Positions 33,259 to 52,785 of a stretch of DNA of 64,000 nt are shown piece by piece. Each line of letters opens with the position of its first letter. Position 1 is the stretch's first letter. The DNA is taken from positions 143,950 to 207,949 of the forward strand of contig CBDCBW010000012.1 in assembly GCA_965214485.1 (NCBI GenBank), written 5' to 3'. The notes beneath the pieces were generated by a model. It ran no database searches. It was not told the origin of the DNA and was given only the letters and a program-made list of their open reading frames with translations. The translations under genes and the position numbers were made by a program. This DNA comes from Rhodothermales bacterium (GTDB lineage: Bacteria > Bacteroidota > Rhodothermia > Rhodothermales > JANQRZ01).

Positions 33259-34788
33259 ATGGCTGAGACCCAACAAGCCGGGGCCGCCGCGGCCGCCGCG
33301 ACTGAAGAGAAAGGCAGCATCCTCGATTCCATCTTCCAGCAGGTCGCCGTCGCCGCGCCCGAGAGCGCCGTCCACGTCGGCGAGTTCGACGACGTGACGG
33401 CGAATGCCGACAAGCCGCGCGGGGCCGTCGTCGCCGCCGCGCTCCGCGTCTTCGTCGACGCCGTCAACGACCTCGAAAGCCCGGTCGAGAAGGTCGACAA
33501 AGAGCTCATCGACTCGATGGTCGCGCAGCTCGACCACAAGCTCTCCCAGCAGCTCGACGCGATCATGCACCACGAAGCGTTCCAGGAGAGCGAGTCCTCG
33601 TGGCGCAGCCTGAAGTTCCTCGTCGACCGGACGGACTTCCGCAAGAACGTCAAGGTCGAGGTCGTCAACTGCTCGAAAGAGGACCTCTTGGAGTCGTTCG
33701 AGGACGCGCCCGAGCTGATCCAGTCGGCGCTCTACAAGCACGTCTACACGAACGCCTACGACCAGCCCGGCGCGGACCCCTACAGCGCGATCGTCACGAA
33801 CTACGAGTTCAGGAACACGCCGCAGGACGTGGCCCTCATGCAGCAGGCGTCGAAGGTCGCCGCCGCGGCGCTCTGCCCGTTCGTCGCGTCGGTCGGGCAC
33901 GAGTTCTTCGGCAAGCCCTCGATGGAGGAGTGGAAGAAAATCCCCGACGTCTCGGCGCACATGGAGACCGTCGACTTCGTCAAGTGGAACGCATTCCGCG
34001 AGAGCCCGGACTCGCGCTACCTCGCCCTCACGTTCCCGCGCTTCATGCTCCGCCTGCCCTACGGCGAGGACACGGTGCCGGTCAAGAACTTCAACTACAA
34101 CGAGGACGTCACCGGGGCCGACCACGAGCGCTACCTGTGGGGCAACGCCTCGTTCGCCTTCGCCGGGAACATGGTCGAGGCGTTCGTGCGCGACGGGTGG
34201 AGCGTCCAGATCCGCGGCCCGCAGTCCGGCGGCAAGGTCTCCGACCTGCCGGTGCACCTCTACGACGTGGGCAAGGGCAAGCAGATGAAAATCCCGACCG
34301 AGGTCCCGATCTCGGAGACGCTCGAGTTCGAGTGCGCGAACCTCGGCTTCGTCCCGCTCTCGATCTACGAGGGCAAGGACTTCGCCTGCTTCTTCTCGGC
34401 CAACTCGTCCCAGAAACCGACGCTCTACGACGAGCCTGAGGCGACGGCCAACAGCCGCATCAACGCTCGGCTGCCGTACATCATGCTCGGCTCCCGCATT
34501 GCGCACTACCTCAAGGTGCTCCAGCGCGAAAACATCGGCGCGACGAAGGACGCCGGCCGGATCGAGGAGGAGCTCAACAAGTGGATCAACGGCCTGGTCA
34601 CCAAGATGCCGAACCCGACCGAGGACATGATCGCCAAGTACCCGCTGCGCAGCGGCCAGGTGACCGTCCAGGACCTCGACGACAACCCCGGCTTCTACCG
34701 CGTCCAGATGGCGATCATGCCGCACTTCCAGATCGAGGGCATGGACATCAACCTCTCGATGGTCAGCAAGATGCCGAAGGCGAAGTAG
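33259..34788 (+). CDS. tssC: T6SS sheath large subunit TssC (VipB)
   Basis: The 509-aa product contains SESSWRSLKFLVDR, LTFPRFMLRLPYG and the C-terminal FYRVQMAIMPHFQIEGMDI. Confidence 0.97.
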   Translation: MAETQQAGAAAAAATEEKGSILDSIFQQVAVAAPESAVHVGEFDDVTANADKPRGAVVAAALRVFVDAVNDLESPVEKVDKELIDSMVAQLDHKLSQQLDAIMHHEAFQESESSWRSLKFLVDRTDFRKNVKVEVVNCSKEDLLESFEDAPELIQSALYKHVYTNAYDQPGADPYSAIVTNYEFRNTPQDVALMQQASKVAAAALCPFVASVGHEFFGKPSMEEWKKIPDVSAHMETVDFVKWNAFRESPDSRYLALTFPRFMLRLPYGEDTVPVKNFNYNEDVTGADHERYLWGNASFAFAGNMVEAFVRDGWSVQIRGPQSGGKVSDLPVHLYDVGKGKQMKIPTEVPISETLEFECANLGFVPLSIYEGKDFACFFSANSSQKPTLYDEPEATANSRINARLPYIMLGSRIAHYLKVLQRENIGATKDAGRIEEELNKWINGLVTKMPNPTEDMIAKYPLRSGQVTVQDLDDNPGFYRVQMAIMPHFQIEGMDINLSMVSKMPKAK

Positions 34789-41624: not shown

Positions 41625-43859
41625 ATGCCCTCGCTCGCCGCCAACGCCACCCGGTTCTCCTTCTCGACGGCCCAGCTCGGCGAGGGCCGGCTCGAGGTCG
41701 TCACGTTCACCGGGCACGAGGCCATCTCGCAGCCCTTCCGCTTCGAGCTCGACCTGCTCTCGACCGACCCGTCGGTGCCGTTCTCGGACGTCGTGGACCA
41801 GCCCGCCACGCTCACGATGCACGGGGCCGAGGACGAGGCGTGGCCGGTCCACGGCGTCGTCGCCCACTTCGAGCAGGGCGGGCCCGTCGGCGACTACTAC
41901 CGCTACCGGGCGGTCCTCGTGCCCCGCCTGTGGCGGCTCTCGCTGACGCACCAGAGCCGCATCTTCCAGGAGAGGTCGGTCCCCGAGATCGCACGCGAGG
42001 TGCTCGTCGGTTCCGGCTTCGCCCCGGACGACTTCGAGTCGCGCCTGAGCGGCTTGTACCCGCCGCGCGAGTATTGCACCCAGTACCAGGAGACCGACCT
42101 CGCGTTCGTCTCCCGGCTGTGCGAGCACGAGGGCATCCAGTTCTTCTTCGAGCACCAGGACAGCCGCGAGGTCCTCGTCTTCACCGACGACCGGAGCGAG
42201 AACCCGCCCATCGAGGGCGACGACACGGTGACGTACCGGGCGATGGCGGGCCTAGCGCAGCCGCACGCCGAGACCGTGCAGGAGTTCGTCTTCCGCGAGA
42301 CCCTCGTCACCGGCAAGGTGGTCCTCAAAGACTACAACTACCGCACCCCCGAGGACGACCTCCGCGTCGAGTCCCAGATCAACGGCGACCTGCCGGGGGT
42401 CTACTACGAGTACGGCCCGCACTACCAGGACGCGGGCGAGGGCAACCGGCTCGCGCGCGTTAGGAACGAGGAGATCGAGTGCCGGCGGCGGATCGGGCAG
42501 GGCGAGGGGACGTGCGCGCGCCTCCGCGCCGGGCACACCTTCACGCTCGACCAGCACTACCGGCTCGACCTCAACCACGCCTACCTCCTGACCGAGGTCA
42601 CGCACTACGGCTCGCAGCCCGGCTTGGTGACGATGCAGGCGGGCACGGACGACACGTTGCCCTACCGCAACACCTTCGTCTGCATCCCGACCGACGTGGC
42701 GTTCCGCCCGCAGCGCCTGACGCCCGAGCCAACGCTGCCCGGCGTCATGACGGCCAAAGTCGAAACCGCTGGCGGCCCCTACGCCCACCTCGACGACCAG
42801 GGCCGCTACCACGCCAAGATGGACTTCGACCTCGGCGACGCGGGCGACGGCACGGCCTCGCTGCCTATCCCGATGAACCAGTCGTACTCAGGGTCAGACT
42901 ACGGCATTCACTTCCCGAACCACGCCGCCACCGAGATGATCTGGGCGTGTCTCAACGGCGACATCGACCGCCCGTTCGCGCTCGGGACCGTGCCGAATCC
43001 GTCGCAGGGTTCGCCGTCCGCGGCGGCCAACAAGCACCAGAACGTCATCCGCACCTGGGGCAAGAACGAGCTGACGTTCGACGACAAGCAGGGCGCGGAG
43101 AACATCTACCTCCATGCCACGAAGGACCACACGGTCGAGGTGACGAACGACGAGACCATCACGGTCGGCAACGACCAGTCGCAGACGGTGGGCAACGACC
43201 AGACGGAGTCGGTCGGCAACAACCAGACACTCTCCGTCGGGACGAACCGGGACAAGACCGTCGGCGCGAACCAGACCGAAACGGTCGGCGCGAACAAGAC
43301 GATCAACGTCGGGGGCAACCACAGCGAGACGATTGGGAGCAACATGACCCAGACGGTCGCTGCCTCGAAGGCGGAGACGATTGCCATAGCGAAAGCGCTG
43401 ACGATTGGCGGGGCCTACCAGGTCACTGTGGGCGGTGCTGAGAACCACACCGTCGGCGGCCTTCTCGCCCAAGAGGTCGGCGGTGCGAAGACAGTGGCCG
43501 TCGGCGCGCTCAGCAGCGAGAACGTGGGGCTCAACAAGTCCGTGGACGCCGGAGGTAGCATCTCGGAGAGTGCCGGGAAGAACTTCTCCTGTCAAGCCGG
43601 CAAGAGCTTCAGCGCACAGGCGGGCGACGACGTGGCGGTCCAGGCCGGGAAGAAGATGGCGCTCAGCGCAGGCGATGACTTCGCCGTCTCCGGCGGCAAG
43701 AAGGGCGTGATCACCATCGCCGACGAGCTGACCCTCAAGTGTGGCAAGGCGACAATCACGCTGAAGAAGAGCGGCGACATCCTTATCAACGGCAAGAAGA
43801 TCCAGATCAAGGGGTCCGGCGACGTGGTCATCAAGGGGAGCAAGGTCCTAGCGAACTGA
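41625..43859 (+). CDS. vgrG: T6SS spike protein VgrG
   Basis: The 744-aa product has a gp27-like N-terminus (FRFELDLLS...), a gp5 OB region and a beta-helix of repeated V-G-x-N/D-x-T/S octads. It has no extra C-terminal effector domain. Confidence 0.96.
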   Translation: MPSLAANATRFSFSTAQLGEGRLEVVTFTGHEAISQPFRFELDLLSTDPSVPFSDVVDQPATLTMHGAEDEAWPVHGVVAHFEQGGPVGDYYRYRAVLVPRLWRLSLTHQSRIFQERSVPEIAREVLVGSGFAPDDFESRLSGLYPPREYCTQYQETDLAFVSRLCEHEGIQFFFEHQDSREVLVFTDDRSENPPIEGDDTVTYRAMAGLAQPHAETVQEFVFRETLVTGKVVLKDYNYRTPEDDLRVESQINGDLPGVYYEYGPHYQDAGEGNRLARVRNEEIECRRRIGQGEGTCARLRAGHTFTLDQHYRLDLNHAYLLTEVTHYGSQPGLVTMQAGTDDTLPYRNTFVCIPTDVAFRPQRLTPEPTLPGVMTAKVETAGGPYAHLDDQGRYHAKMDFDLGDAGDGTASLPIPMNQSYSGSDYGIHFPNHAATEMIWACLNGDIDRPFALGTVPNPSQGSPSAAANKHQNVIRTWGKNELTFDDKQGAENIYLHATKDHTVEVTNDETITVGNDQSQTVGNDQTESVGNNQTLSVGTNRDKTVGANQTETVGANKTINVGGNHSETIGSNMTQTVAASKAETIAIAKALTIGGAYQVTVGGAENHTVGGLLAQEVGGAKTVAVGALSSENVGLNKSVDAGGSISESAGKNFSCQAGKSFSAQAGDDVAVQAGKKMALSAGDDFAVSGGKKGVITIADELTLKCGKATITLKKSGDILINGKKIQIKGSGDVVIKGSKVLAN

Positions 43860-43860
43860 T

Positions 43861-44397
43861 ATGAAGAAGCCGCAGGCTCCACAGCGACTCGTCCCCGCCG
43901 GAAAAGCAGAACGGTGGGTAAGCCCCGCCCAGACCGGCGCGGCGGAGCCGGTTCCGCGCATCGACGGCGTTGTGATCGGCCAGGTCGTTGGCTTGGACGA
44001 GGTCGGCCAGCCACTCGTTGACTTCGACCTCGCCCCTCTGGGGGTGGTGCTGACGGCGCGCTCGACGGTGGCGCTCGACGCCGACTGTGTAGGCCGCGAC
44101 GTAGCGCTCCTCTTCGAACAGGGTGACCCGTGGAAGCCCGTCGTGATGGGGCTGCTCTGGACCCCGGACCCGCCGAGCGAACAGGGCACCCCCGGAGCAG
44201 AGGCAGCGGGCCATATCGAGGTGAGCGCTGATGGAGAGCGGCTGACGCTCTCGGCGGAGCGGGAGATTGTGCTGCGCTGCGGGAAAGCCTCGCTCACGCT
44301 GACGCGGGCGGGGAAGGTGCTGATCCGCGGCGAATACGTGCTCAGCCGGTCCTCCGGGGTGAACCGGATCAAAGGCGGGTCGGTCCAGATCAACTAG
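43861..44397 (+). CDS. small gp5/VgrG-tip-like (OB-fold) protein, possibly DUF6484, in the PA0096-equivalent position
   Basis: The 178-aa ORF starts 2 nt after the vgrG stop. It contains IDGVVIGQVVGLDEVGQPLVDF and the C-terminal LRCGKASLTLTRAGKVLIRGEYV, which mirrors the VgrG C-terminus LKCGKATITLKKSGDILINGKKI. Confidence 0.65.
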   Translation: MKKPQAPQRLVPAGKAERWVSPAQTGAAEPVPRIDGVVIGQVVGLDEVGQPLVDFDLAPLGVVLTARSTVALDADCVGRDVALLFEQGDPWKPVVMGLLWTPDPPSEQGTPGAEAAGHIEVSADGERLTLSAEREIVLRCGKASLTLTRAGKVLIRGEYVLSRSSGVNRIKGGSVQIN

Positions 44398-44409
44398 GGG
44401 AGGAGAGGC

Positions 44410-45420
44410 ATGTGGATGCTGGACAACCAGACGCCTTATGAAGCCGAGCGGACGTGGGTGCGCGACAAGGACGGTCGGCACCACTGGATCGTCGTGGTGA
44501 AGGCGACTTACGATATCGGCACGGACGGCACGCCGAGCCTATCGGAGGAGCCGGTAGCGCCCCTCTACGCCCCGGAGTATCACGGGGCGGACGGCCTCTC
44601 CAGCCTGCGTTACGAGGCGGACCTGACGGCTATGAAGCCGGGAACCGACGTTTACCTCAACGCTGTGGCCTACGCGCCGCAGGGCAGGCCGAGCGAGAAG
44701 GTGACGGTCTCGGTCCAGATCAACCGCCTCCGCAAGGACCTGCTCGTCTACGGAGACCGGGTATGGGAGCGGACGCTGACGGGCGGCGCGAAGCCGTCGT
44801 CGCCCGACCCCTTCGTGACCATGCCGATCACCTACGAGCGAGCATTCGGGGGCACCGACCAGGAGGACCCGAATCCACGGAAGCATCGGATGGACTATCA
44901 GAACCCGGTCGGGACCGGAGTAGCGACTCAGGAGAGCCAGCTCATCGGGACCCCCGCACCTAGTATCGAGGACCCGACCCAGAAACCAGGGAAGGGCCGA
45001 CCCGCGGGCTTTGGAGCCGTCGCCAGCCACTGGTCTCCGCGCAGAGAGCTCGCCGGGACCTACGACGAGCGGTGGGCGGCCAAGAGACGACCGCTACTTC
45101 CTGTCGATTACGACCCGAGGCACCTGCTCTGCGCCCCGGCGGACCAACAGGCTCCAGGGTACCTGAAAGGCGGGGACCGGCTGGAGTTGACCAACCTGAC
45201 CCCGAGCGGTCGGTTAGCGTTCACGATTCCGAAGCTTTCGTTCCAGTTCGACACGTATTTTGGGAGCACACGCAAAGAGCACACCTCGGAGTTGGTTTCG
45301 GTCATCGCCGAGTCGGAAGGCCCCCGGCTGATTCTCGTCTGGCAGACGAGCCTGCCGTGCGGCAACGACGCCGACTACCTGGACCGAACCGTGATTCGAC
45401 AGGAGGAGCAGACCCTGTGA
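44410..45420 (+). CDS. DUF2169 family T6SS adaptor protein
   Basis: The sequence LDNQTPYEAERTWVRDKDGRHHWIVVVKATYDI...GTDVYLNAVAYAP...LLVYGDRVWE fits the DUF2169 pattern as I remember it. Confidence 0.85.
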   Translation: MWMLDNQTPYEAERTWVRDKDGRHHWIVVVKATYDIGTDGTPSLSEEPVAPLYAPEYHGADGLSSLRYEADLTAMKPGTDVYLNAVAYAPQGRPSEKVTVSVQINRLRKDLLVYGDRVWERTLTGGAKPSSPDPFVTMPITYERAFGGTDQEDPNPRKHRMDYQNPVGTGVATQESQLIGTPAPSIEDPTQKPGKGRPAGFGAVASHWSPRRELAGTYDERWAAKRRPLLPVDYDPRHLLCAPADQQAPGYLKGGDRLELTNLTPSGRLAFTIPKLSFQFDTYFGSTRKEHTSELVSVIAESEGPRLILVWQTSLPCGNDADYLDRTVIRQEEQTL

Positions 45421-46484
45421 GCCAGGACCTCCATATCGTTGCTGTCGGGGCACGCACGCCGCTGGGCCTGAGCGCCGAAGCGAGCGTGGCAGCGGTACGG
45501 GCGGGGATCAGCCACATCACCGAGCATCCGTTCTTCATAGACCGCGTGGCCGAGCCGGTGCGGCTCGCCCAGGACAGCCAGCTCGACCCAGGGCTGATGG
45601 GACCCGAGCGGCTCATCGAGATGACGGTGACGGCGCTGACAGAGGTGTGTGACAGGCTCCGGGAGGCCCAGGTCGATTTTCGGAGCGTCCCGCTGTTGCT
45701 TGCGCTGCCGGAAGAGCGGCCGGGGTGGGGGGGCGAGGACGTGCAGACCGTGGTGCGCGGAATAGAGGAGAGACTCCAGCCCGTCGAGTTCCAGTCCATC
45801 ACGGTCTTCCCCGCCGGGCACGCCGCAGCCCTCGCAGCGCTGGGTGTAGCCTGCCAGCAGCTCCGCGCCGGCCAGGCCGAGTTGTGCGTGGTCGCAGGCG
45901 TAGACAGCTACCTGGAGCCCGAAACCCTCCGGTGGCTGGACGAGAACCGGCAGCTTGCCACCTCCTACCATCGGGGGGCTTTCTTCCCCGGCGAGGGCGC
46001 GGGGGCCTTCGCCGTTGCCTCCAGCACCGCGCTTCGGCGGTATAGACTGGACACCCTGGCCGTCATCCAGGGGACGGGAACTGCCACAGAGACCAAGCTC
46101 ATCAAGACCGATGCCGTCTGTCTGGGTGAGGGGCTGACGGCGTGTGTCGGTCAGGCCGTCGCACCGCTTCGCCTCCCCGCTGAAGCCGTCGAGGGCATCC
46201 TGTGCGACATCAACGGCGAGCGCTACCGCTCCGAGGAGTGGGGCTTCGTGCTCCTGCGTCTCCCCATCGCCTTCGTGGACCCGACCGGATACGACCTGCC
46301 GGCCTCCTGCTGGGGCGATGTGGGGGCAGCGTCCGGTGCACTGTTCGTCGTCATCGCCGTGCTAGCGAGCCGACGAGGGTGGGCAAAAGGCACCCGCTAC
46401 CTGATCTGGACCAGCTCCGAGGCGGGCCTGCGCGCTGCCGTGCTCCTGAAGCTCATCCCGAGACAGGAGGAGGTAGCAAGATGA
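45417..46484 (+). CDS. beta-ketoacyl-synthase/thiolase-fold protein lacking catalytic residues (PA0098-like)
   Basis: GTG 45417 overlaps the upstream stop (GTGA), with AGGAGGAG 9-16 nt upstream. The thiolase-fold pattern is IVAVGARTPLGLSAEASVAAVRAGIS, CVVAGVDS and FFPGEGAGAFAV. The nucleophile position reads AGHAA rather than ACxxS. Confidence 0.8.
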   Translation: MSQDLHIVAVGARTPLGLSAEASVAAVRAGISHITEHPFFIDRVAEPVRLAQDSQLDPGLMGPERLIEMTVTALTEVCDRLREAQVDFRSVPLLLALPEERPGWGGEDVQTVVRGIEERLQPVEFQSITVFPAGHAAALAALGVACQQLRAGQAELCVVAGVDSYLEPETLRWLDENRQLATSYHRGAFFPGEGAGAFAVASSTALRRYRLDTLAVIQGTGTATETKLIKTDAVCLGEGLTACVGQAVAPLRLPAEAVEGILCDINGERYRSEEWGFVLLRLPIAFVDPTGYDLPASCWGDVGAASGALFVVIAVLASRRGWAKGTRYLIWTSSEAGLRAAVLLKLIPRQEEVAR

Positions 46485-47377
46485 GCGTCGGCATCAATCC
46501 TCCCAAGACCCCCGTCACCAAGGGGAGCAATGGCATCGCGGCGGCGACTATCCCGAACGTGTGCAAGATGCCGGGGCCGCCGGCTCCCTTTGTGCCCGCA
46601 CCGCTTCCGAACATCGGCAAATCGGGGAGCAGCCCTAAAGGGTACACGAAGAAGGTAAAGGCCGACGGAGATCCCGTTGCCGTCAGGGGAGCCAGCTTCG
46701 GCAGCATGGGCGACATGGCGAGTAAGGGAACCGGCGGCGGAATAGTATCCGCCAACACCCACGGCCCCTGCAAGTTCATAGGCCCTGGCTCAATGGATGT
46801 CAAGTTCGAGGGTAAGAACGTCCACTTGCTTAGCGACCCGGTGACCAACAACGGAGCCGGTAGTGGAACGCCAGCGAACGCAGCTACAATGGTAGGAGTA
46901 GCACAAACATTCGCAATTCCTGAGGAACACCTGAGGCAGGATGAGGATAAATGTCAGCAATGTAAATCAGCAAGTAGAGGAGAATCATATGAAGATTTTT
47001 TCACTGAAGAAGAAAGGGGGTATTTTGATATAATAGCTTCTCTATATCCAGGATTAGAGACTATGTTGCCTCCTTCCAATGCCAAATACTCATTTGTGAA
47101 ACCGAGTAAAGTCAAAGCTAGATATAAGAAATTCAAGGAAGCAATGAGAAGAGCGAAAAAGGCTGGAGCAATAACTGTGAATGGACCAGTCCATCATCCT
47201 CATCCGAGGAAATACGGAGGATGTTCCCTCCACCAGGATTTAATAGATATTGACGGCCAGGATAAAAAAGATATGGATGAAAAGATGAAGAACGTTATGG
47301 ATTATGTGAACGCTAGAAAGAATGATTCGCAGCATCATAGATCTACAAACTTAGCGAAAATACAACAATGGATTTAG
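46481..47377 (+). CDS. DUF4150 (PAAR-like) T6SS toxin with a C-terminal putative xHH-type HNH/EndoVII nuclease domain (Tse7-like architecture)
   Basis: ATG 46481 overlaps the upstream stop (ATGA), with AGGAGGAGG upstream. The N-terminal 130 aa read PNVCKMPGPPAPFVPAPLPNIG...VKFEGKNVHLLSDPVTNN, the DUF4150 pattern. The C-terminal 165 aa are Lys/Asp-rich, low in GC and carry GPVHHPHP. Confidence 0.85.
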   Translation: MSVGINPPKTPVTKGSNGIAAATIPNVCKMPGPPAPFVPAPLPNIGKSGSSPKGYTKKVKADGDPVAVRGASFGSMGDMASKGTGGGIVSANTHGPCKFIGPGSMDVKFEGKNVHLLSDPVTNNGAGSGTPANAATMVGVAQTFAIPEEHLRQDEDKCQQCKSASRGESYEDFFTEEERGYFDIIASLYPGLETMLPPSNAKYSFVKPSKVKARYKKFKEAMRRAKKAGAITVNGPVHHPHPRKYGGCSLHQDLIDIDGQDKKDMDEKMKNVMDYVNARKNDSQHHRSTNLAKIQQWI

Positions 47378-48237
47378 GCAATAACGATAGGATGGCATCA
47401 TCAAGAAACAGGAGGCCTAAATACGTAAATCCTACATGGCTTACTTGCAGCGACGGATACAAATTTAAGTCTACACCTCCGTCTTCCATGCGCGAAGATA
47501 AATATCTGACGAGTTCGAATTTGTGGGAAAGGGTTATTTGCGTCACTCTTCAAGCGCAATCTGGTGATTTTCGCAATGTGGAAGTACTTCTTGATGTCGC
47601 CAGGGCAAGTGACGACTTTAGTTTAACTGATAGTTCGCTGAGGTTATTCGCTCAATCTGCTCCCTCTTCCTCTGTTTTGAGACTTGCTAGTCTGTTCAGC
47701 GACTCAGATCACTTCGTTAGACTATCGTCTTATCAGGCGGCTGTATTGAGTTGTGATCTACGTCTCGCAGGTTCTTTATCCGACCACTATGTAGATAGTG
47801 TAATCCAAGATCGCGAGGATATTTCCACTGCGATCAGTGATATGCTAGAACCTTTCAACGATAATATGGAACTATACGAAGGCCATGAAGAAGCTTATGA
47901 ATACAGAGATAAAGTTAAGAATAAGATATTTCAAATATCAGATATATATGGGAAGAAAACTGCCGTCTTCGGAGGGACAGTATTAGATTTGACGGACTTG
48001 ATGCGTCGCGTTATCCATCTTTGCGAAGATGATTGTGAAGAGTATAGTGCCGTAATATATGGGATGATGTCTATCGTTGAAGGAATGACTGGTGTCTTGC
48101 TAAAAGGATGCTTTGATGAAGAATGTAATCCTATAATGGACGAACTGACACATGTAATTAATAGAATGAATTTGGAAATTAAAAGCAAAAAATATAATAC
48201 AGGAGTTAGGTATTTTTTCAGTAATATATTAGTTTGA
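47368..48237 (+). CDS. putative cognate immunity protein
   Basis: The 289-aa ORF overlaps the toxin gene by 10 nt and shares its low-GC composition. It is acidic and has no signal peptide. The assignment rests on position only. Confidence 0.55.
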   Translation: MDLGNNDRMASSRNRRPKYVNPTWLTCSDGYKFKSTPPSSMREDKYLTSSNLWERVICVTLQAQSGDFRNVEVLLDVARASDDFSLTDSSLRLFAQSAPSSSVLRLASLFSDSDHFVRLSSYQAAVLSCDLRLAGSLSDHYVDSVIQDREDISTAISDMLEPFNDNMELYEGHEEAYEYRDKVKNKIFQISDIYGKKTAVFGGTVLDLTDLMRRVIHLCEDDCEEYSAVIYGMMSIVEGMTGVLLKGCFDEECNPIMDELTHVINRMNLEIKSKKYNTGVRYFFSNILV

Positions 48238-48460
48238 AAATCAAGACGCACACCGAGTGGAGTGAAATTCAGTATGAAAATGCTCCTATGTACTATCTTC
48301 TTATTCAGTTTGAGCCCGACGCCTCGGCTTTTGCACAGGCTCTAGACGTGTCTTGGTCACGCATCAAGTTTGGGCGCACATTCGGAAAGAAACTCGTAGA
48401 GCAGACCCTCTCGGTCTTGGGGCGATGGGGACTCCTGTAGGGGCAGCAGGGCCTACCCTC

Positions 48461-49723
48461 ATGAGCGATATCATCACCGATATCATCACGCAGCACGCCG
48501 AGGAAGCCGCCTTTCTGTGGCAGCTCCGGGGAGGCATCGTCCACGCGCCGCACTACACGCTCGAAGAACTGGCCGGGCACGACGAGCGCGCCGAGGCTCA
48601 CCTCGACGGATTGCGAATCGCGAGCGAACCAGGATGGGTTGTCTGCCGGGAGCAACTGGTCTGGCAGGAGGGGGGCGAGACCTTCGCCGCCGCCGTGCTG
48701 GCGCTGGAGGGTGGAACCGACGAGCGCTACAGCACGGTGCTCGAAGCCGCGAGCGGCACGGAGGAACAGGCGCGCGGGTTCGTCTCTGCGCTCGGGTGGC
48801 TGCCCTACAAGCGAGTAAAGGCGCGTATCGAGCAGCTGCTGAATGCAGAGTCGGCAGCGATGCAATACCTCGGAATCGCAGGGGCAGCGGTGCATCGGCA
48901 GGACCCTGGGGTGCATCTTGCCACGGCGCTCGCGGTGCCAGATGGGAGGCTGCAGGCGCGGGCGCTGAAGGCGGTGGGGGAGCTAGGGCGGCGGGACCTG
49001 CTCGGGTCGCTTTACCCCCATCTGCAGGCGGAGGATCAGAAGTCGCGCTTCTACGCAGCGTGGTCGGCGGTGCGGCTGGGGGACGACCGGGCCGTCCGGG
49101 TGCTGATGGAGATCGCGGAGGCTGGCGGCCTTTACGCAGAGAAAGCGCTGGACCTCGCGCTACGGCGGCTGCCCGTCGCGCAGGCGCTGGACGTCGTCCG
49201 CCGGTTCGACGCGGAGCCGGAGCGGCAGCGGTTGGGTGTGATCGGTGCCGGAGTGGTCGGAGACCCGGCGCTCGTGCCGTGGCTGATCGAGCAGATGGCG
49301 GTGCCGGAACTGTCTCGCGTTGCCGGAGAGGCGTTCACGAACATCACCGGCGTGGACCTCGCCTACCACGATCTCGAAGGCGAGTGGCCCGAGGGGTTCG
49401 AGGCCGGGCCGACGGAAGACTCGGAGGACGAGAACGTCGAGATGGACCGGGACGAAGACCTGCCGTGGCCGGACCCGGCGCTCGTCGCGGCGTGGTGGCA
49501 CACGCACGGCGGGGCGTTCCAGACAGGAACCCGCTACTTCCTGGGGCAACCGCTGAGCGAGCCGGTGTTGCAGGACGCGCTCCGGCTAGGGATGCAGCGG
49601 CAGCGAGCGGCAGCGGCGCTGGAGCTAGCGCTGCTTTATCCCGACCAACCCCTCTTCGAGGTCCGGGCACCGGGCTTCCGGCAGCAGCGGATGCTGGGAC
49701 TCGCGCCGGCCTGGGCGGGGTAG
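48461..49723 (+). CDS. TIGR02270-family HEAT-repeat protein (PA0101-like)
   Basis: ATG 48461 opens MSDIITDIITQHAEEAAFLWQLRG, the N-terminal motif I associate with TIGR02270. HEAT-like repeats and an acidic insert follow, for 420 aa. Confidence 0.8.
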   Translation: MSDIITDIITQHAEEAAFLWQLRGGIVHAPHYTLEELAGHDERAEAHLDGLRIASEPGWVVCREQLVWQEGGETFAAAVLALEGGTDERYSTVLEAASGTEEQARGFVSALGWLPYKRVKARIEQLLNAESAAMQYLGIAGAAVHRQDPGVHLATALAVPDGRLQARALKAVGELGRRDLLGSLYPHLQAEDQKSRFYAAWSAVRLGDDRAVRVLMEIAEAGGLYAEKALDLALRRLPVAQALDVVRRFDAEPERQRLGVIGAGVVGDPALVPWLIEQMAVPELSRVAGEAFTNITGVDLAYHDLEGEWPEGFEAGPTEDSEDENVEMDRDEDLPWPDPALVAAWWHTHGGAFQTGTRYFLGQPLSEPVLQDALRLGMQRQRAAAALELALLYPDQPLFEVRAPGFRQQRMLGLAPAWAG

Positions 49724-49886
49724 CCCTCCTGGCTCTCCAGTGATATCTCGCTGCGTGTCAGGGCCGTCCGGGAGCGACTCCGCGCGGGCACGCACCGTGG
49801 GGGCCACCCTCCCTAGAGTGCAAGACGATTGCTTGTAGGCGAACCCCCTGCTTCCGCTGCCATCGCTTTGCTCCGAGCAGCGAAAG

Positions 49887-49912
49887 CTGTCCCCCTCGCG
49901 TGAGGGGGACAG
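49887..49912. terminator. perfect 11-bp GC-rich hairpin after the last cargo-module gene
   Basis: CTGTCCCCCTC (49887-49897) pairs with GAGGGGGACAG (49902-49912) across a GCGT loop. There is no clear T-tail. Confidence 0.35.
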
Positions 49913-49987
49913 TCCGTTGGCCGTTGAGCGCCAGCGATGGGCCGACGGACGGGGAGTCGGCTCACGAGAAAAGAGACCGCGACGCTA

Positions 49988-50503
49988 GGCTCTGTCTGAG
50001 ATTGGATGCGGTGTAGCTTGGGTGCGCCACCTACTCTCGGTCCTCTAGGCCGCAACGCCGCTACGAACTCGCCGAGGAGCCGTTCGCCCTCATCGAATCC
50101 CTGGTGCCCCACCCCACACGCGGCTCCCGGCGCGCCGACCGCAGCGCGTGACCGGGGCTGCGATGCGAAGCAGGGGCGGGCGTGGCTACGTGCGCGGCGT
50201 ATCCGAGCGCTGATCCCAGAGCGGCGGTGATCCCAGAGCGGAAGCTCCCAGTCGGCACGAAGCGTCGGCGAAGAAGCGTCGGCGGCGGGGTCGCCCTCCG
50301 GTACGGGAGGGCGAGCAGGACCGGCGGCGCATCGAGCGCCTGGTGGGATGGCTTGGGCGGGCGTCCGCCCGCCCGGAGCACCGCAGCGTAAGGAGCACCG
50401 CAGCGTGGCGACGGGCTTCGACAAGCGGGCCTCGTCGTGCTTGGCGATGGTGAAGCGGGCCTGCATCCGGCGCTTGCTGCGGGCCGCTATCTCAGACAAG
50501 CCC
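49988..50503 (+). mobile_element. internally deleted IS5-family (IS427-like) element, MITE-like, with terminal inverted repeats and a TA target duplication
   Basis: IRL is GGCTCTGTCTGAGAT (49988-50002). IRR is ATCTCAGACAAGCCC (50489-50503), whose reverse complement GGGCTTGTCTGAGAT matches IRL at 12 of 15 positions. TA flanks both ends (49986-87 and 50504-05). The inside holds transposase fragments in several frames, YELAEEPFALIESLVP (N-terminus), RRRIERLVGWLG and ATGFDKRASSCLAMVKRACIRRLL (C-terminus). At 516 bp it is too short for an intact IS. Confidence 0.7.
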
Positions 50504-50806
50504 TAGACTACTATGTGGCCGTGTGGGGACCGGCGTATCCCTTCGAGATGCGCGCTGACACCGTGCGGCACGGGGAAATTGGCGCGCGCTGGCTGAACTT
50601 AGTGGAGATACGCCGAACCGCTGTGGCGGGGGATGACTATGCATACTCCGTTCGACTCCGTTTCTCCGGGTCAGTCTACGAAGTGGTTGAGGGGTCCGAG
50701 GAGCGGCTGTAGCCGTCTGGAGGTTCCGAGCGTTCCGCCCGTGGAGACCTTGAAGGCGAGTAGCCGGAGGGGTCGAGGCCGGAGCGGGTCGAGGCAGGGA
50801 GACGGA

Positions 50807-50902
50807 GGACTCCGGTTGGCCCTACTCCATCCCGACCGGCCGCTCTTCGAGACGCGGGTCCCCAGCCTTCAGCAGCGGGTGCTGGGGCTCGCGCCGGCGT
50901 GG
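50807..50902 (+). pseudogene. 3' fragment of a second TIGR02270/HEAT gene
   Basis: The fragment encodes GLRLALLHPDRPLFETRVPSLQQRVLGLAPAW, which is colinear with the C-terminus of the intact gene (LELALLYPDQPLFEVRAPGFRQQRMLGLAPAW at about 49621-49717). The DNA is also visibly similar. Confidence 0.65.
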
Positions 50903-50961
50903 CGGCCTCTTCCACGCAGCCTTTGCGTTCCCCGAGTATCACCACGAAACAGAACCACCTC

Positions 50962-52785
50962 ATGGGAACGCACCCGCACGAACACGTCGGCATCCGCGTC
51001 ACCTCGGACCCGGACACCACCTTGGTCACGCAGCCTGCCGCCGAAGCCCGGCGGCGCGAGACGCCGATACCGCTCCGGCTTCTCTTCGTGGCGGACCTCA
51101 CGCCGCAGACCGAGCACAAGTGGCGCGGCGAGTCGCTCGTCCGCCGCGTGGACGTGAACGGCTTCGCTGGGCTGATGGCCGAGTGGCAGCCGGGGCTCCG
51201 GCTCGACGTGCCGAACCGCCTCAGCTCCGAGCCGAAGGCGCTGGAGGTCGCGCTGCGGTTCGCGTCGCTCAAGGACTTCACGCCGGGCGGGGTCGCGCGG
51301 CAGGTCCCGGCGCTTGCACGCCTCCTCGCCATCCGCACCGAGGTGGACGGCGTCCGCACGAAGGGCACCGACGCGGCGACCTTCCGCGCCGGCCTCGCCG
51401 AGGCCGGCGTAGACGAAGCCTCCGCCGACGGGCTGTACGCCCAGCTCACCGTCGCGCCGCCGGAAGCCACGCCTAAGCAGTCAACCGGAGACGACTCACT
51501 CGACCGGCTCATGGGGATGGTGGACACGGGCAAGGGCGAGCAGGTGCCCGGCTTTGTGGAGGCCGTCGCCGAAGCCGTGGCGGGCGACACGCCCCGCGTC
51601 GCCCGGTCCGCCGCCGACACTATCCTCGCCGACTTCGACCGGAAGCTCGGCGGGCAGCTTCGGGCGATCCTCGAGCACCCGGACCTCCGCCGGCTCGAAG
51701 CGGCGTGGCGCGGCCTGAAATTTCTCGTGGACCGCCTGCCGTTCCGCGACGGGGTCCACCTCGACGTGCTCCCCGCCGGACGTGACGAGCTGGGCGAGGC
51801 GCTCTACGAGCAGGTGCTCCTCCCGGAGCATGGTGCCGATGACGGGCGTGCCCCGCTCGCGGCCGTCCTCCTCGGATTCGCCTTCGGCAACAGCCAGGCC
51901 GACGCAGTGCTCCTCGACGACCTCGCCGGGACGGGGGCAAGCCTGCAAGCGCCGATCATCGCCTCGGCCGATCCCGCGTTCTTTGCGCTCGATGGGCCGG
52001 AGGACGAGGGGGCGATCCCGCTCGTCGCCCACCTCACCGACGGGCCGGCGTACCTCCACTGGAACAAGCTCCGGGCGAAGGACGAGGCGCGGTACGTCGC
52101 CCTCGCGTTCCCGCCGTTTTTGCTCCGCGCGCCCTACGGGCCGGAGAACCCGTCGAGGGAGGTGCCGCTCGGCGAGGAGGGGTTTCTGTGGGGCGGGGGG
52201 GCGCTCGCCGTCGGCCTCGCGCTCGCGGACTCGTTCGCCGAGACGGGCTGGCCGACCCACCTCGCCGGGCGGCGCGTCGGCGACCTGCCGCTTCACGAGA
52301 CGGGCCGGGGCGCGACGCCGCTCGCCCGCCTGCTGCCTGAGGCGAAGGCGGCGGAGCTGGCCGAGGCCGGGTTTGCCGTGCTGACGGGCGAGGCGAACCG
52401 GGACGCGCTGCGGCTCGCGCACGCGCCGAACCTTTCGAAGCCCGCCGCCTTCGACGACCCGGAGAAGACGGCCCACGCGGCGGCGCACGCCACGCTCGCG
52501 TGTGGGCTCTTCTCTGCCCGCGCCGCGCACCGGCTCCTCACCCTCCCCGGCGAGCTCGACCCGGCGGACGCGCTGGAGGCCAAGCAGGACGCCGTCGTCC
52601 AAAAGCTCCGCGCCTTTCTTGGGACGCCCGAAGCGGACGTGCCGGCCGGTGCCGTGACGGCCGAGCCGGTGCCCAAGGCGGAGATCGAGGGGCATGACTT
52701 GCTGGCGGTTCGGTTGCAGCCGCCGCCTCACGTCCTGTATCACCCCGTCCACCTCGCGGTGGGCCTCCCGGTGCCTCGCGCCTGA
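50962..52785 (+). CDS. fused TssB-TssC-like contractile-sheath paralogue
   Basis: This is a single ORF of 607 aa from ATG 50962. The N-terminal part aligns with TssB (PLRLLFVADL, LRFASLKDFTPGGVARQVPALARLLAIR). The rest aligns with TssC (LEAAWRGLKFLVDR, LAFPPFLLRAPYG, AGFAVLTGE). Confidence 0.8.
   Translation: MGTHPHEHVGIRVTSDPDTTLVTQPAAEARRRETPIPLRLLFVADLTPQTEHKWRGESLVRRVDVNGFAGLMAEWQPGLRLDVPNRLSSEPKALEVALRFASLKDFTPGGVARQVPALARLLAIRTEVDGVRTKGTDAATFRAGLAEAGVDEASADGLYAQLTVAPPEATPKQSTGDDSLDRLMGMVDTGKGEQVPGFVEAVAEAVAGDTPRVARSAADTILADFDRKLGGQLRAILEHPDLRRLEAAWRGLKFLVDRLPFRDGVHLDVLPAGRDELGEALYEQVLLPEHGADDGRAPLAAVLLGFAFGNSQADAVLLDDLAGTGASLQAPIIASADPAFFALDGPEDEGAIPLVAHLTDGPAYLHWNKLRAKDEARYVALAFPPFLLRAPYGPENPSREVPLGEEGFLWGGGALAVGLALADSFAETGWPTHLAGRRVGDLPLHETGRGATPLARLLPEAKAAELAEAGFAVLTGEANRDALRLAHAPNLSKPAAFDDPEKTAHAAAHATLACGLFSARAAHRLLTLPGELDPADALEAKQDAVVQKLRAFLGTPEADVPAGAVTAEPVPKAEIEGHDLLAVRLQPPPHVLYHPVHLAVGLPVPRA

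Follow-up and report, generated by a model that had tools for sequence, protein, structure and literature searches.

How does a single uninterrupted open reading frame (ORF) come to be written in two base compositions, and what does its aberrant half encode? The question is raised by a 64,000-nucleotide (nt) stretch of a Rhodothermales bacterium (Bacteroidota; contig CBDCBW010000012.1, positions 143,950 to 207,949), hereafter the window, which by Pfam and NCBIfam assignments holds a complete type VI secretion system (T6SS) cluster: Fha, TssK, TssL, TssM, TagF, TssC, Hcp, TssF, ClpV and VgrG. Downstream of the VgrG gene lies an effector gene, whose product couples a PAAR-like (DUF4150) carrier domain to a C-terminal toxin domain, and directly behind it a partner gene for a putative immunity protein. 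Our reading, to which we give a probability of roughly 80%, is that this is a T6SS spike-tip effector whose toxin, from a rare family, came together with its immunity gene as an AT-rich cassette that replaced an earlier one.

The compositional island is real, precisely placed and far beyond chance. In a 300-nt sliding profile the G+C fraction is 0.64-0.70 until about position 46800, 0.34-0.45 over 46800-48350 and 0.61-0.72 thereafter; nowhere else in the window (mean 0.707, standard deviation 0.064, minimum 0.327) does it fall below 0.55. The break falls within the effector ORF, whose reading frame is intact. G+C at third codon positions (GC3) drops from 0.78 over codons 1-125 to 0.33 over codons 126-298, the change sitting at synonymous sites; GC3 is 0.35 in the partner gene and 0.82-0.97 in the surrounding genes. 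In a codon table the synonymous third positions ending in A or T start at codon ~125-127 (nt ~46853-46860), inside the motif NNGAGSGTPANAATMVG. The conserved carrier end NNGAGSGTPANAATMVGVAQ at 46853..46906 is thus already in A/T-ending codons, which places the crossover zone in this interval. The preliminary description had claimed a sharp G+C fall inside one ORF from counts of 45, 27, 21 and 13 on 60-nt lines; these recompute as 44, 27, 21 and 12, within one base, and two-segment maximum-likelihood change points on G+C, along with the GC3 profile, confirm a discontinuity running from 46885 to 48314. The Pfam Tox-PAAR-like match of the carrier covers residues 21-125. Across 78 comparable loci the cassettes that occupy the same slot are AT-richer than their flanks by a median of 0.045 and a maximum of 0.196; the difference of 0.255 in the window is the most extreme of the 79 loci compared.

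The two halves of the protein have different relatives. The carrier matches Tox-PAAR-like/DUF4150 (PF13665) with an E-value (E) of 2e-17 and 63.7 bits against a gathering cut-off of 31; compared by eye, its vertex motif PAPLPNIG is a variant of the PIPYPNTG read in Tse7-like proteins, the domain consensus at the vertex of the cone being P(I/V)P(Y/F). Among the 120 best database matches to the full 298-residue protein, 21 are full-length, at 49-58% identity (Pyxidicoccus fallax, Myxococcus sp. CA056, Archangium sp. and metagenome-assembled genomes, MAGs, of Myxococcota). The other 99 match the N-terminal domain only: their alignments mostly end at residues 139-147, and up to 316 residues of unrelated sequence follow. 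One N-terminal delivery domain thus carries unrelated C-termini in close relatives, as in polymorphic toxins. Moreover, the N-terminal domain is closer to that of proteins with other toxins (up to 88% identity, mean 81%) than to that of proteins with the same toxin (mean 75%), and the halves therefore have discordant histories. The DNA of the closest syntenic locus, L013, aligns to the window without break from the DUF2169 gene to nt 46905 and no further; amino acid identities are 75% for DUF2169, 65% for the thiolase-like protein, 83% for the PAAR-like domain and 57% for TIGR02270. Immediately before the junction, over codons 100-120, the carrier DNA of the two loci is 87% identical, which is enough for homology-assisted recombination.

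More generally, what follows the PAAR-like domain differs among the 78 loci, which come from many phyla; in those with a TIGR02270 gene on the same strand no more than 4 kb away, this slot measures 0.5-2.2 kb. The C-termini of 96 of 98 close relatives contain no Pfam toxin domain. Two side observations concern these relatives. Locus L013 (JAIWDV010000095.1) is labelled a Bacteroidales MAG, with a G+C of ~0.52, and is nevertheless the closest syntenic relative of the accessory module: either the contig is mis-binned or the module moved between phyla. Many of the unrelated C-termini on this carrier (proteins P0023-P0123) start with a CxxC 15-20 residues past NAATMxG, and the consensus of their alignment ends in PCxxC, with a Pfam toxin domain in only 2 of 98, hinting at a large unannotated group of toxins, possibly deaminase-like.

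The right-hand edge lies in a damaged gene. Behind the partner gene a G+C-richer stub at 48291-48440 translates to ...FGRTFGKKLVEQTLSVLGRWGLL*. It corresponds, up to and including the stop codon, to the final 49 residues of a 516-residue methyltransferase in locus L036, a Desulfobacterales MAG (41% identity, E 2e-10 in the pairwise comparison); Pfam assigns this methyltransferase to the PKMT type. About 470 methyltransferase codons are gone from the window, so that the incoming segment ends inside a truncated neighbour gene. In another locus a PKMT-type methyltransferase stands directly 3' of the same toxin/partner family. Since near carriers bear unrelated C-termini and the right edge sits in the truncated methyltransferase gene, replacement of a C-terminal toxin/immunity cassette is well supported. 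A toxin and immunity cassette grafted in frame onto a PAAR-like carrier is what the preliminary description had proposed, and the N-only matches, the end of the L013 homology at 46905 and the co-occurrence of toxin and partner in 14 of 14 loci (below) bear this out. The event is a recombinational replacement and not a classical integrative island; the latter was rejected as no tRNA, no meaningful flanking or integrase-type repeats and no Rfam elements were found at the flanks of the island. Intact PKMT-type methyltransferases are also present in the related T6SS clusters L031, L032, L036, L039 and L044.

The partner gene is linked to the toxin domain and not to the carrier. We collected 14 independent toxin loci, these being every locus obtained by any search route, and in all of them a partner homologue begins 5-90 nt after the toxin domain, one copy being split by a frameshift. 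A word-index search with the partner found just two relatives, both directly behind PAAR-like genes with window-like C-termini. The carriers in the 14 loci include the window-type PAAR-like domain and a divergent PAAR-like domain (39% identity). In L101 a stand-alone PAAR-like gene is followed by a separate toxin gene, and L092 has an N-terminally truncated orphan toxin with its partner, keeping only the PAAR-like tail. The complete genome CP132203.1 (L102, 1859142-1869699) has the toxin domain and the partner after a gene for a DUF4123 adaptor, with an Rhs protein and a Tsi6-like gene upstream, so that adaptor-dependent cargo is another form in which this toxin travels. Pairwise identities of toxin and partner co-vary (r = 0.70, reached by 3 of 5000 permutations). 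The toxin domains are basic (isoelectric point, pI, mostly 8-9) and the partners acidic (pI 4.6-6.1; 4.9 in the window), and the partners show no signal peptide, transmembrane or hydrophobic segment. As toxin linkage, charge complementarity and gene position agree, these sequence features point to a putative cognate immunity protein acting in the cytoplasm and, by the same token, to a cytoplasmic target. The gene had been proposed earlier as a 289-residue ORF at 47368-48237; its start is probably not the alternative ATG at 47368 and is more plausibly the ATG at 47392 (281 residues), as judged from the homologues and the database gene call. As a separate observation, the equivalent slot of L036 (10980-12435) is occupied by a gene of the SUKH-1 (SMI1/KNR4) family and an immunity gene of TsiV type, so that the slot evidently accepts recognised immunity families.

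The following course of events would account for the locus. The effector would be a specialised T6SS spike-tip protein, whose DUF4150 domain caps VgrG with the help of the DUF6484, DUF2169 and thiolase-like proteins; homology and gene order suggest both the capping and the need for a chaperone. The toxin domain and the immunity gene would have arrived jointly as an AT-rich cassette of ~1.45 kb, displacing an earlier cassette. The left crossover is envisaged inside the conserved carrier end, at codons ~125-142, and such a position would keep the reading frame; the right end of the insert would lie inside the methyltransferase gene, of which the last 49 codons were left. The acidic, HEAT-like immunity protein (47392-48237) would presumably neutralise the basic toxin domain by binding to it. 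The sharp edges and the unameliorated GC3 (0.33 versus 0.8-0.97) indicate that the replacement is recent.

What, then, did the cassette bring? In an alignment of 21 sequences of the toxin domain, C158, C161, Y170, F173, F174, M195, P197, P198, H238, H239, P240, G246, G247, C248, H251, Q252, D266 and R279 are invariant, and every one of them is intact in the window copy. In more distant members H238 varies (H/A/Q/D), with H239 and GGC..HQ fixed. Two of the motifs singled out in the preliminary description, HHPHP and (S)LHQ, are accordingly conserved; the third, SQHH, is not, and falls within the last 17 residues of the window toxin, which are found in no other copy. Neither singly nor as a 21-sequence profile did the domain match Pfam, NCBIfam or PDB sequences, the PDB searches returning only noise (fibrinogen, SDS3), and a word-index search for homologues of the C-terminal domain by itself came back empty; the family surfaced via the neighbours of the partner gene and via a search with the full-length effector. 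An exhaustive profile hidden Markov model search of 1.84 billion representative proteins yielded 14 clusters, every one at E < 1e-21, with no weaker match besides; five more loci came from a pattern scan over 241 million metagenome records. The family is hence small and sharply bounded, with ~35-40 known sequences in total. The suggestion that toxin domain and partner may both be new families is strengthened by these figures and by the lack of a match for either in Pfam, NCBIfam and PDB; as far as the libraries and literature examined show, both are undescribed. One further ORF, P0135 in L103 (2696-3133; 145 residues), consists of the first ~53 residues of a TIGR02270-type protein followed by the C-terminal half of the toxin domain. 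Its immediate upstream neighbours are DUF6484, DUF2169 and thiolase-like genes, and a deletion or rearrangement seems to have produced it.

An AlphaFold2 model of the toxin domain is confident (predicted local distance difference test score, pLDDT, 90; predicted template-modelling score 0.83) and mostly helical, with short strands at the HH motif (98-99 in domain numbering) and at 115-117, followed by a long helix (121-141) that carries D266. The CxxC...CxxH residues most likely form a structural zinc site, and H239, Q252 and D266 may form the centre of a divergent His-Me (HNH/EndoVII-like) nuclease that would act on nucleic acid in the cytoplasm of the target. The spacing HH-x6-GG of the toxin resembles colicin DNases. 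The order H, CxxH-Q, D with a strand-strand-helix arrangement is compatible with the HNH/EndoVII (ββα-Me) pattern, a fold of which the fold search retrieved no example. In that fold a β-hairpin ends in the catalytic His and the helix after it provides a metal ligand, and a Cys4 or Cys3His zinc site often braces the whole. The NGO1392-like HNH/EndoVII clade has the signature ‘CxxC, DH, CxxC, Q’ (PMC3482391, Table 2). The window toxin, with CxxC...(H)H...CxxH-Q and then a helix with an invariant Asp, has a residue order of the type seen in this clade and in Tox-ColE7 (HH, H, H) of the same table, and it shares with HNH/EndoVII toxins the pairing of a basic toxin with an acidic immunity protein. 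Profile and fold searches, on the other hand, give no support for a place in these clades; helices dominate its predicted fold, for which the PDB has no counterpart; its first CxxC lies 77 residues upstream, with a helical insert between; and its last zinc ligand would be a His in place of the Cys of the NGO1392-like clade. The invariant CxxC...xH...CxxHQ thus makes the HNH-nuclease idea a pattern-level lead only. A divergent, zinc-braced His-Me nuclease is on these residue patterns the single most likely activity, and we hold it tentatively, as clearly short of an even chance.

Several results weigh against the nuclease part of our reading. The xHH/HNH nuclease that the preliminary description had entertained could not be established. 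A profile of 8 Pfam-verified Tox-GHH2 domains from syntenic Pseudomonas-type loci gave an hhalign probability of 0.07% (E 0.67), and the toxin reads (P)VHH with no HxxxH, as against the Tox-GHH2 (PF15635) signature of s[AGP]HH plus HxxxH. Given the negative profile-profile comparison, the identification with Tox-GHH2 was rejected. With hmmscan, neither the window domain nor any of the 21 members gave a significant match to AHH, SHH, WHH, LHH, HHH, HNH or Col-Pyo_DNase, the sole match to an HNH-family Pfam entry being one at chance level, to Col-Pyo_DNase in 1 of 21 members (E 0.062). Foldseek searches with the model retrieved no ββα-Me protein, and indeed no match at all among PDB structures or the viral models of BFVD (best E 0.48, template-modelling score, TM, 0.22). 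The Myxococcus effector TsxE was also considered as a counterpart and rejected, as it is of amidohydrolase type and belongs to a different cluster.

These negatives lend weight to the alternative that fares best: the replacement is real, and the toxin is not a nuclease but has some other metal-dependent activity, to which the Cys3-His site and the invariant His would belong, or is a non-enzymatic toxin, the fold being new in either case. In favour of this are the lack of any PDB or BFVD counterpart to a model of high confidence (pLDDT 90) and the failure to find HNH profile similarity. The gap between CxxC and HH in EndoVII-type enzymes is much shorter than the 77 residues seen here, and many unrelated C-termini on the carrier likewise open with CxxC, which may for that reason not be catalytic. 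Set against this, a basic toxin with an acidic cytoplasmic immunity protein and an HH...GG...H motif is typical of nuclease toxins, and the characterised effectors of this setting are mostly nucleases (Tse7/Tox-GHH2; VRR-NUC and NucA domains). We regard a non-nuclease toxin as having nearly, if not quite, even odds. A broader proposal combines such novelty with mobility: the C-terminal domain would be a new zinc-braced fold with an activity undescribed for T6SS effectors, neutralised by a new HEAT-like immunity family and moving between base compositions and between delivery routes, namely PAAR-like fusion, split PAAR plus toxin, and DUF4123-adaptor cargo. In its full form we consider it possible and on balance unlikely.

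The nature of the partner is likewise to be weighed. Its model was built from an alignment of three sequences, which limits its quality: residues ~30-150 reach a pLDDT of 75-90, and the last 50 are unreliable. In Foldseek the confident region, in the N-terminal half, resembles the HEAT-like α-solenoids alphaRep and CpcE over ~150 residues (E 0.008-0.1, target-normalised TM 0.55-0.62) in a model whose overall pLDDT of only 66 is moderate. The partner has no Pfam HEAT match; its C-terminal third, which contains the invariant pattern MTG...GC.D..C.P...G.RYFFG, is modelled poorly and does not resemble HEAT repeats. Such repeats are among the immunity classes listed in PMC3482391, given there for Tox-REase-7 (Table 3). 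As modelled, the partner would be comparable to the latter in being an all-α HEAT-like solenoid encoded directly downstream of a polymorphic toxin; it is unlike it in having no Pfam HEAT match, a different toxin partner and a C-terminal third that is not HEAT-like. A kinship with the adjacent TIGR02270 protein was not adopted, the similarity being weak and repeat-driven (probability 13-18%). The same resemblance could be taken to mean that the 281-residue partner is no immunity protein and instead a HEAT-like adaptor or chaperone that loads or stabilises the toxin domain, as it is a helical-repeat protein like its TIGR02270 neighbour (hhalign probability over the repeat region 13%) and shares with it a G-RYF-G motif. 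Yet the partner trails the toxin domain whatever the carrier or route, carrier-less orphan modules included; further, the charge complementarity and the position are typical of immunity genes, and recognised immunity families (SUKH, TsiV) stand at the same position in related loci. An adaptor or chaperone is thus improbable.

Three results on the origin of the AT-rich DNA count against the cassette reading. The nearest toxin domain, that of L092, is 46% identical, with no donor found; the nearest partner is ~42% identical, the window partner being closer to versions on window-type carriers (38-42%); and this partner resembles the versions of high-GC Myxococcota more than those low-GC ones that were sampled, which leaves the AT-richness unaccounted for. 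The family is seen mainly in high-GC Myxococcota, and in most relatives the cassette has a G+C of 0.56-0.65, near that of its host (Myxococcota-like contigs). It is 0.39 on the ~0.39-GC contig of L092, and also 0.39 within a 0.51-GC region of the L102 genome. Plasmid searches with both proteins were empty. Of the earlier statement that the toxin C-terminus and the downstream ORF share a foreign composition, the compositional half stands (GC3 0.33 and 0.35), and the search for a source returned no donor. The incoming DNA writes the junction motif of the window type in codons that end in A or T, and a donor with this kind of carrier and a genome of lower G+C is therefore probable; window-type carriers with ~0.40 cassettes do exist in 0.50-0.55-GC genomes, for example in L036. 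In L001 (1100-5700) the entire module of DUF2169, thiolase-like, PAAR-toxin and partner genes has a G+C of 0.45-0.60, against 0.65-0.74 in the upstream DNA, and the contig ends just past the partner gene; this looks like a transfer of the whole module and not of the cassette alone.

With no donor found and the toxin family native to Myxococcota, the low G+C might have arisen in place, by relaxed or AT-biased evolution or by selection for AT-rich toxin genes, the more so as slot cassettes are generally AT-richer than their flanks (median difference 0.045, 78 loci). Gradual change of this kind sits poorly with edges that are sharp to ~50 nt on each side, with a synonymous switch inside a conserved motif, with a host gene truncated at the right edge, with the discordant phylogeny of the N-terminal domain and with functional residues that are all intact despite a GC3 of 0.33, and we rate it as very improbable. 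That the segment is an assembly chimera of two organisms joined at the conserved PAAR-like sequence, whose DNA (87% against L013 over codons 100-120) could in principle mislead a metagenome assembler, is scarcely credible, as the same T6SS cluster resumes after 1.43 kb, which requires two precise joins, the ORF stays in frame, there is no repeated sequence at the right join and the window partner protein is recorded on a 469-kb contig.

Features of the effector locus (positions in the window)
Feature	Coordinates	Strand	Basis
VgrG spike protein, effector-carrying	41625..43859	+	Pfam Phage_GPD (E 2.5e-93), Gp5_trimer_C
DUF6484 protein, TvpC-type VgrG mimic of Class II Tvp	43861..44397	+	Pfam DUF6484 (E 3e-20)
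DUF2169 chaperone (TvpA) for PAAR-like/PIPY domain	44410..45420	+	Pfam DUF2169 (E 1e-86)
Thiolase-like PRK06147 protein, TvpD-type accessory	45417..46484	+	NCBIfam PRK06147 (E 4.4e-64)
Effector gene, 298 residues, PAAR-like/DUF4150 carrier and novel toxin domain	46481..47377	+	ORF and sequence
PAAR-like (DUF4150/‘PIPY’) carrier domain, host-like composition	46481..46855	+	Pfam Tox-PAAR-like, GC3 0.78
Junction	46853..46906	+	Codon table, GC change point 46885, L013 homology end 46905, N-only matches ending at residues 139-147
Low-GC island, GC ~0.40	46885..48314	.	Maximum-likelihood change points and sliding GC
Toxin domain, residues ~143-298 (~155 residues)	46907..47377	+	Alignments, distant members, AlphaFold2 model
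Putative cognate immunity gene, 281 residues, acidic	47392..48237	+	Homologues directly 3' of toxin domain in 14/14 loci
PKMT-type methyltransferase remnant, last ~49 codons and stop, C-terminal winged helix	48291..48440	+	tblastx/BLASTP to L036
TIGR02270-family HEAT/armadillo-like accessory protein	48461..49723	+	NCBIfam TIGR02270 (E 2.7e-121), synteny across many loci

The surrounding genes place the effector in a recognised context. The order VgrG-DUF6484-DUF2169-PRK06147-DUF4150 effector-partner-TIGR02270 (41625-49723) is that of T6SS Class II Tvp, or synteny type A, loci. The DUF6484 protein, which in Pfam also weakly matches DUF2345 and Phage_base_V, would have the role of a TvpC-type VgrG mimic (PMC13373197), and DUF2169 that of a chaperone (PMC11883445, PMC13373197). 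The GTG start of the thiolase-like gene overlaps the DUF2169 stop (GTGA), and the effector ATG, preceded by GGAGGAGG, overlaps the thiolase-like gene by 4 nt (ATGA): the DUF2169, thiolase-like and effector genes are coupled by these 4-nt start/stop overlaps. The TIGR02270 gene forms the conserved downstream border of the variable slot. The accessory genes on both sides of the island (43861-46855 and 48461-49723) have a GC3 of 0.78-0.83, compared with 0.94-0.97 in the core T6SS genes, and the whole accessory module may be an older import. Beyond the TIGR02270 gene, ~1.2 kb (49724-50898) contain no convincing gene-like ORF and no Rfam match. The 628-residue ORF that follows (50899-52785, + strand) joins a TssB/VipA domain (47-182) to a TssC/VipB N-terminal domain (241-504) without VipB_2, and looks like a fused sheath-like paralogue beside the canonical TssC at 33259-34788.

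The model for this gene order is the Pseudomonas aeruginosa cluster vgrG1b-PA0096-PA0097-PA0098-Tse7-Tsi7, the type of synteny type A (Sachar et al. 2025, PMC11883445) and of Class II Tvp (Monlezun et al. 2026, PMC13373197), in which PA0096 is DUF6484, PA0097 DUF2169, PA0098 PRK06147 and Tse7 a fusion of DUF4150 with Tox-GHH2; there DUF4150 (‘PIPY’) caps VgrG and requires the DUF2169 chaperone (PMC11883445, PMC13373197). The window shares with it the gene order and the accessory families, with the armadillo/HEAT-like TIGR02270 last, and a toxin fused to the spike-tip domain. It differs in the toxin, which is unrelated to Tox-GHH2 (the hhalign probability of 0.07% given above), in a PAAR-like domain that is just 31-36% identical to the Pseudomonas type and has PAPL in place of PIPY at the vertex, and in its host, with a G+C of ~71% and nearest carriers that would suggest a Nannocystaceae-like myxobacterium. 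A second comparison is with polymorphic toxin systems, in which C-terminal toxin/immunity cassettes are replaced (Zhang et al. 2012, PMC3482391). Like Rhs and CdiA, the locus combines a conserved delivery domain with hypervariable C-termini and an immunity gene directly downstream; the junction falls at a conserved motif, orphan modules in truncated form occur at other loci, and the cassette exceeds its host in A+T. Unlike in those systems, the carrier is a short DUF4150 domain. AT-rich cassettes are classically seen in Escherichia coli Rhs tips. Sequential displacement of effectors is known from Vibrio cholerae (PMC5361080). The window retains no array of displaced orphan immunity genes, and it is the neighbouring methyltransferase gene that is truncated instead.

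The locus thus belongs to a known class: polymorphic T6SS effectors fused to a PAAR-like domain, with the immunity gene downstream. That polymorphic toxins swap their cassettes is already well established, and it is an ordinary route of bacterial weapon diversification; on this carrier, moreover, a C-terminus is as a rule unclassified (96 of 98). The window therefore adds one more toxin of this kind and no new principle. It does provide a clean natural example of the re-arming of a T6SS spike-tip effector, with both recombination edges readable and a neighbour gene damaged in the process. A rare, unannotated toxin/immunity pair with no structural relative is a reasonable target for toxin discovery, and the main value of the locus lies in the activity and the fold of its toxin.

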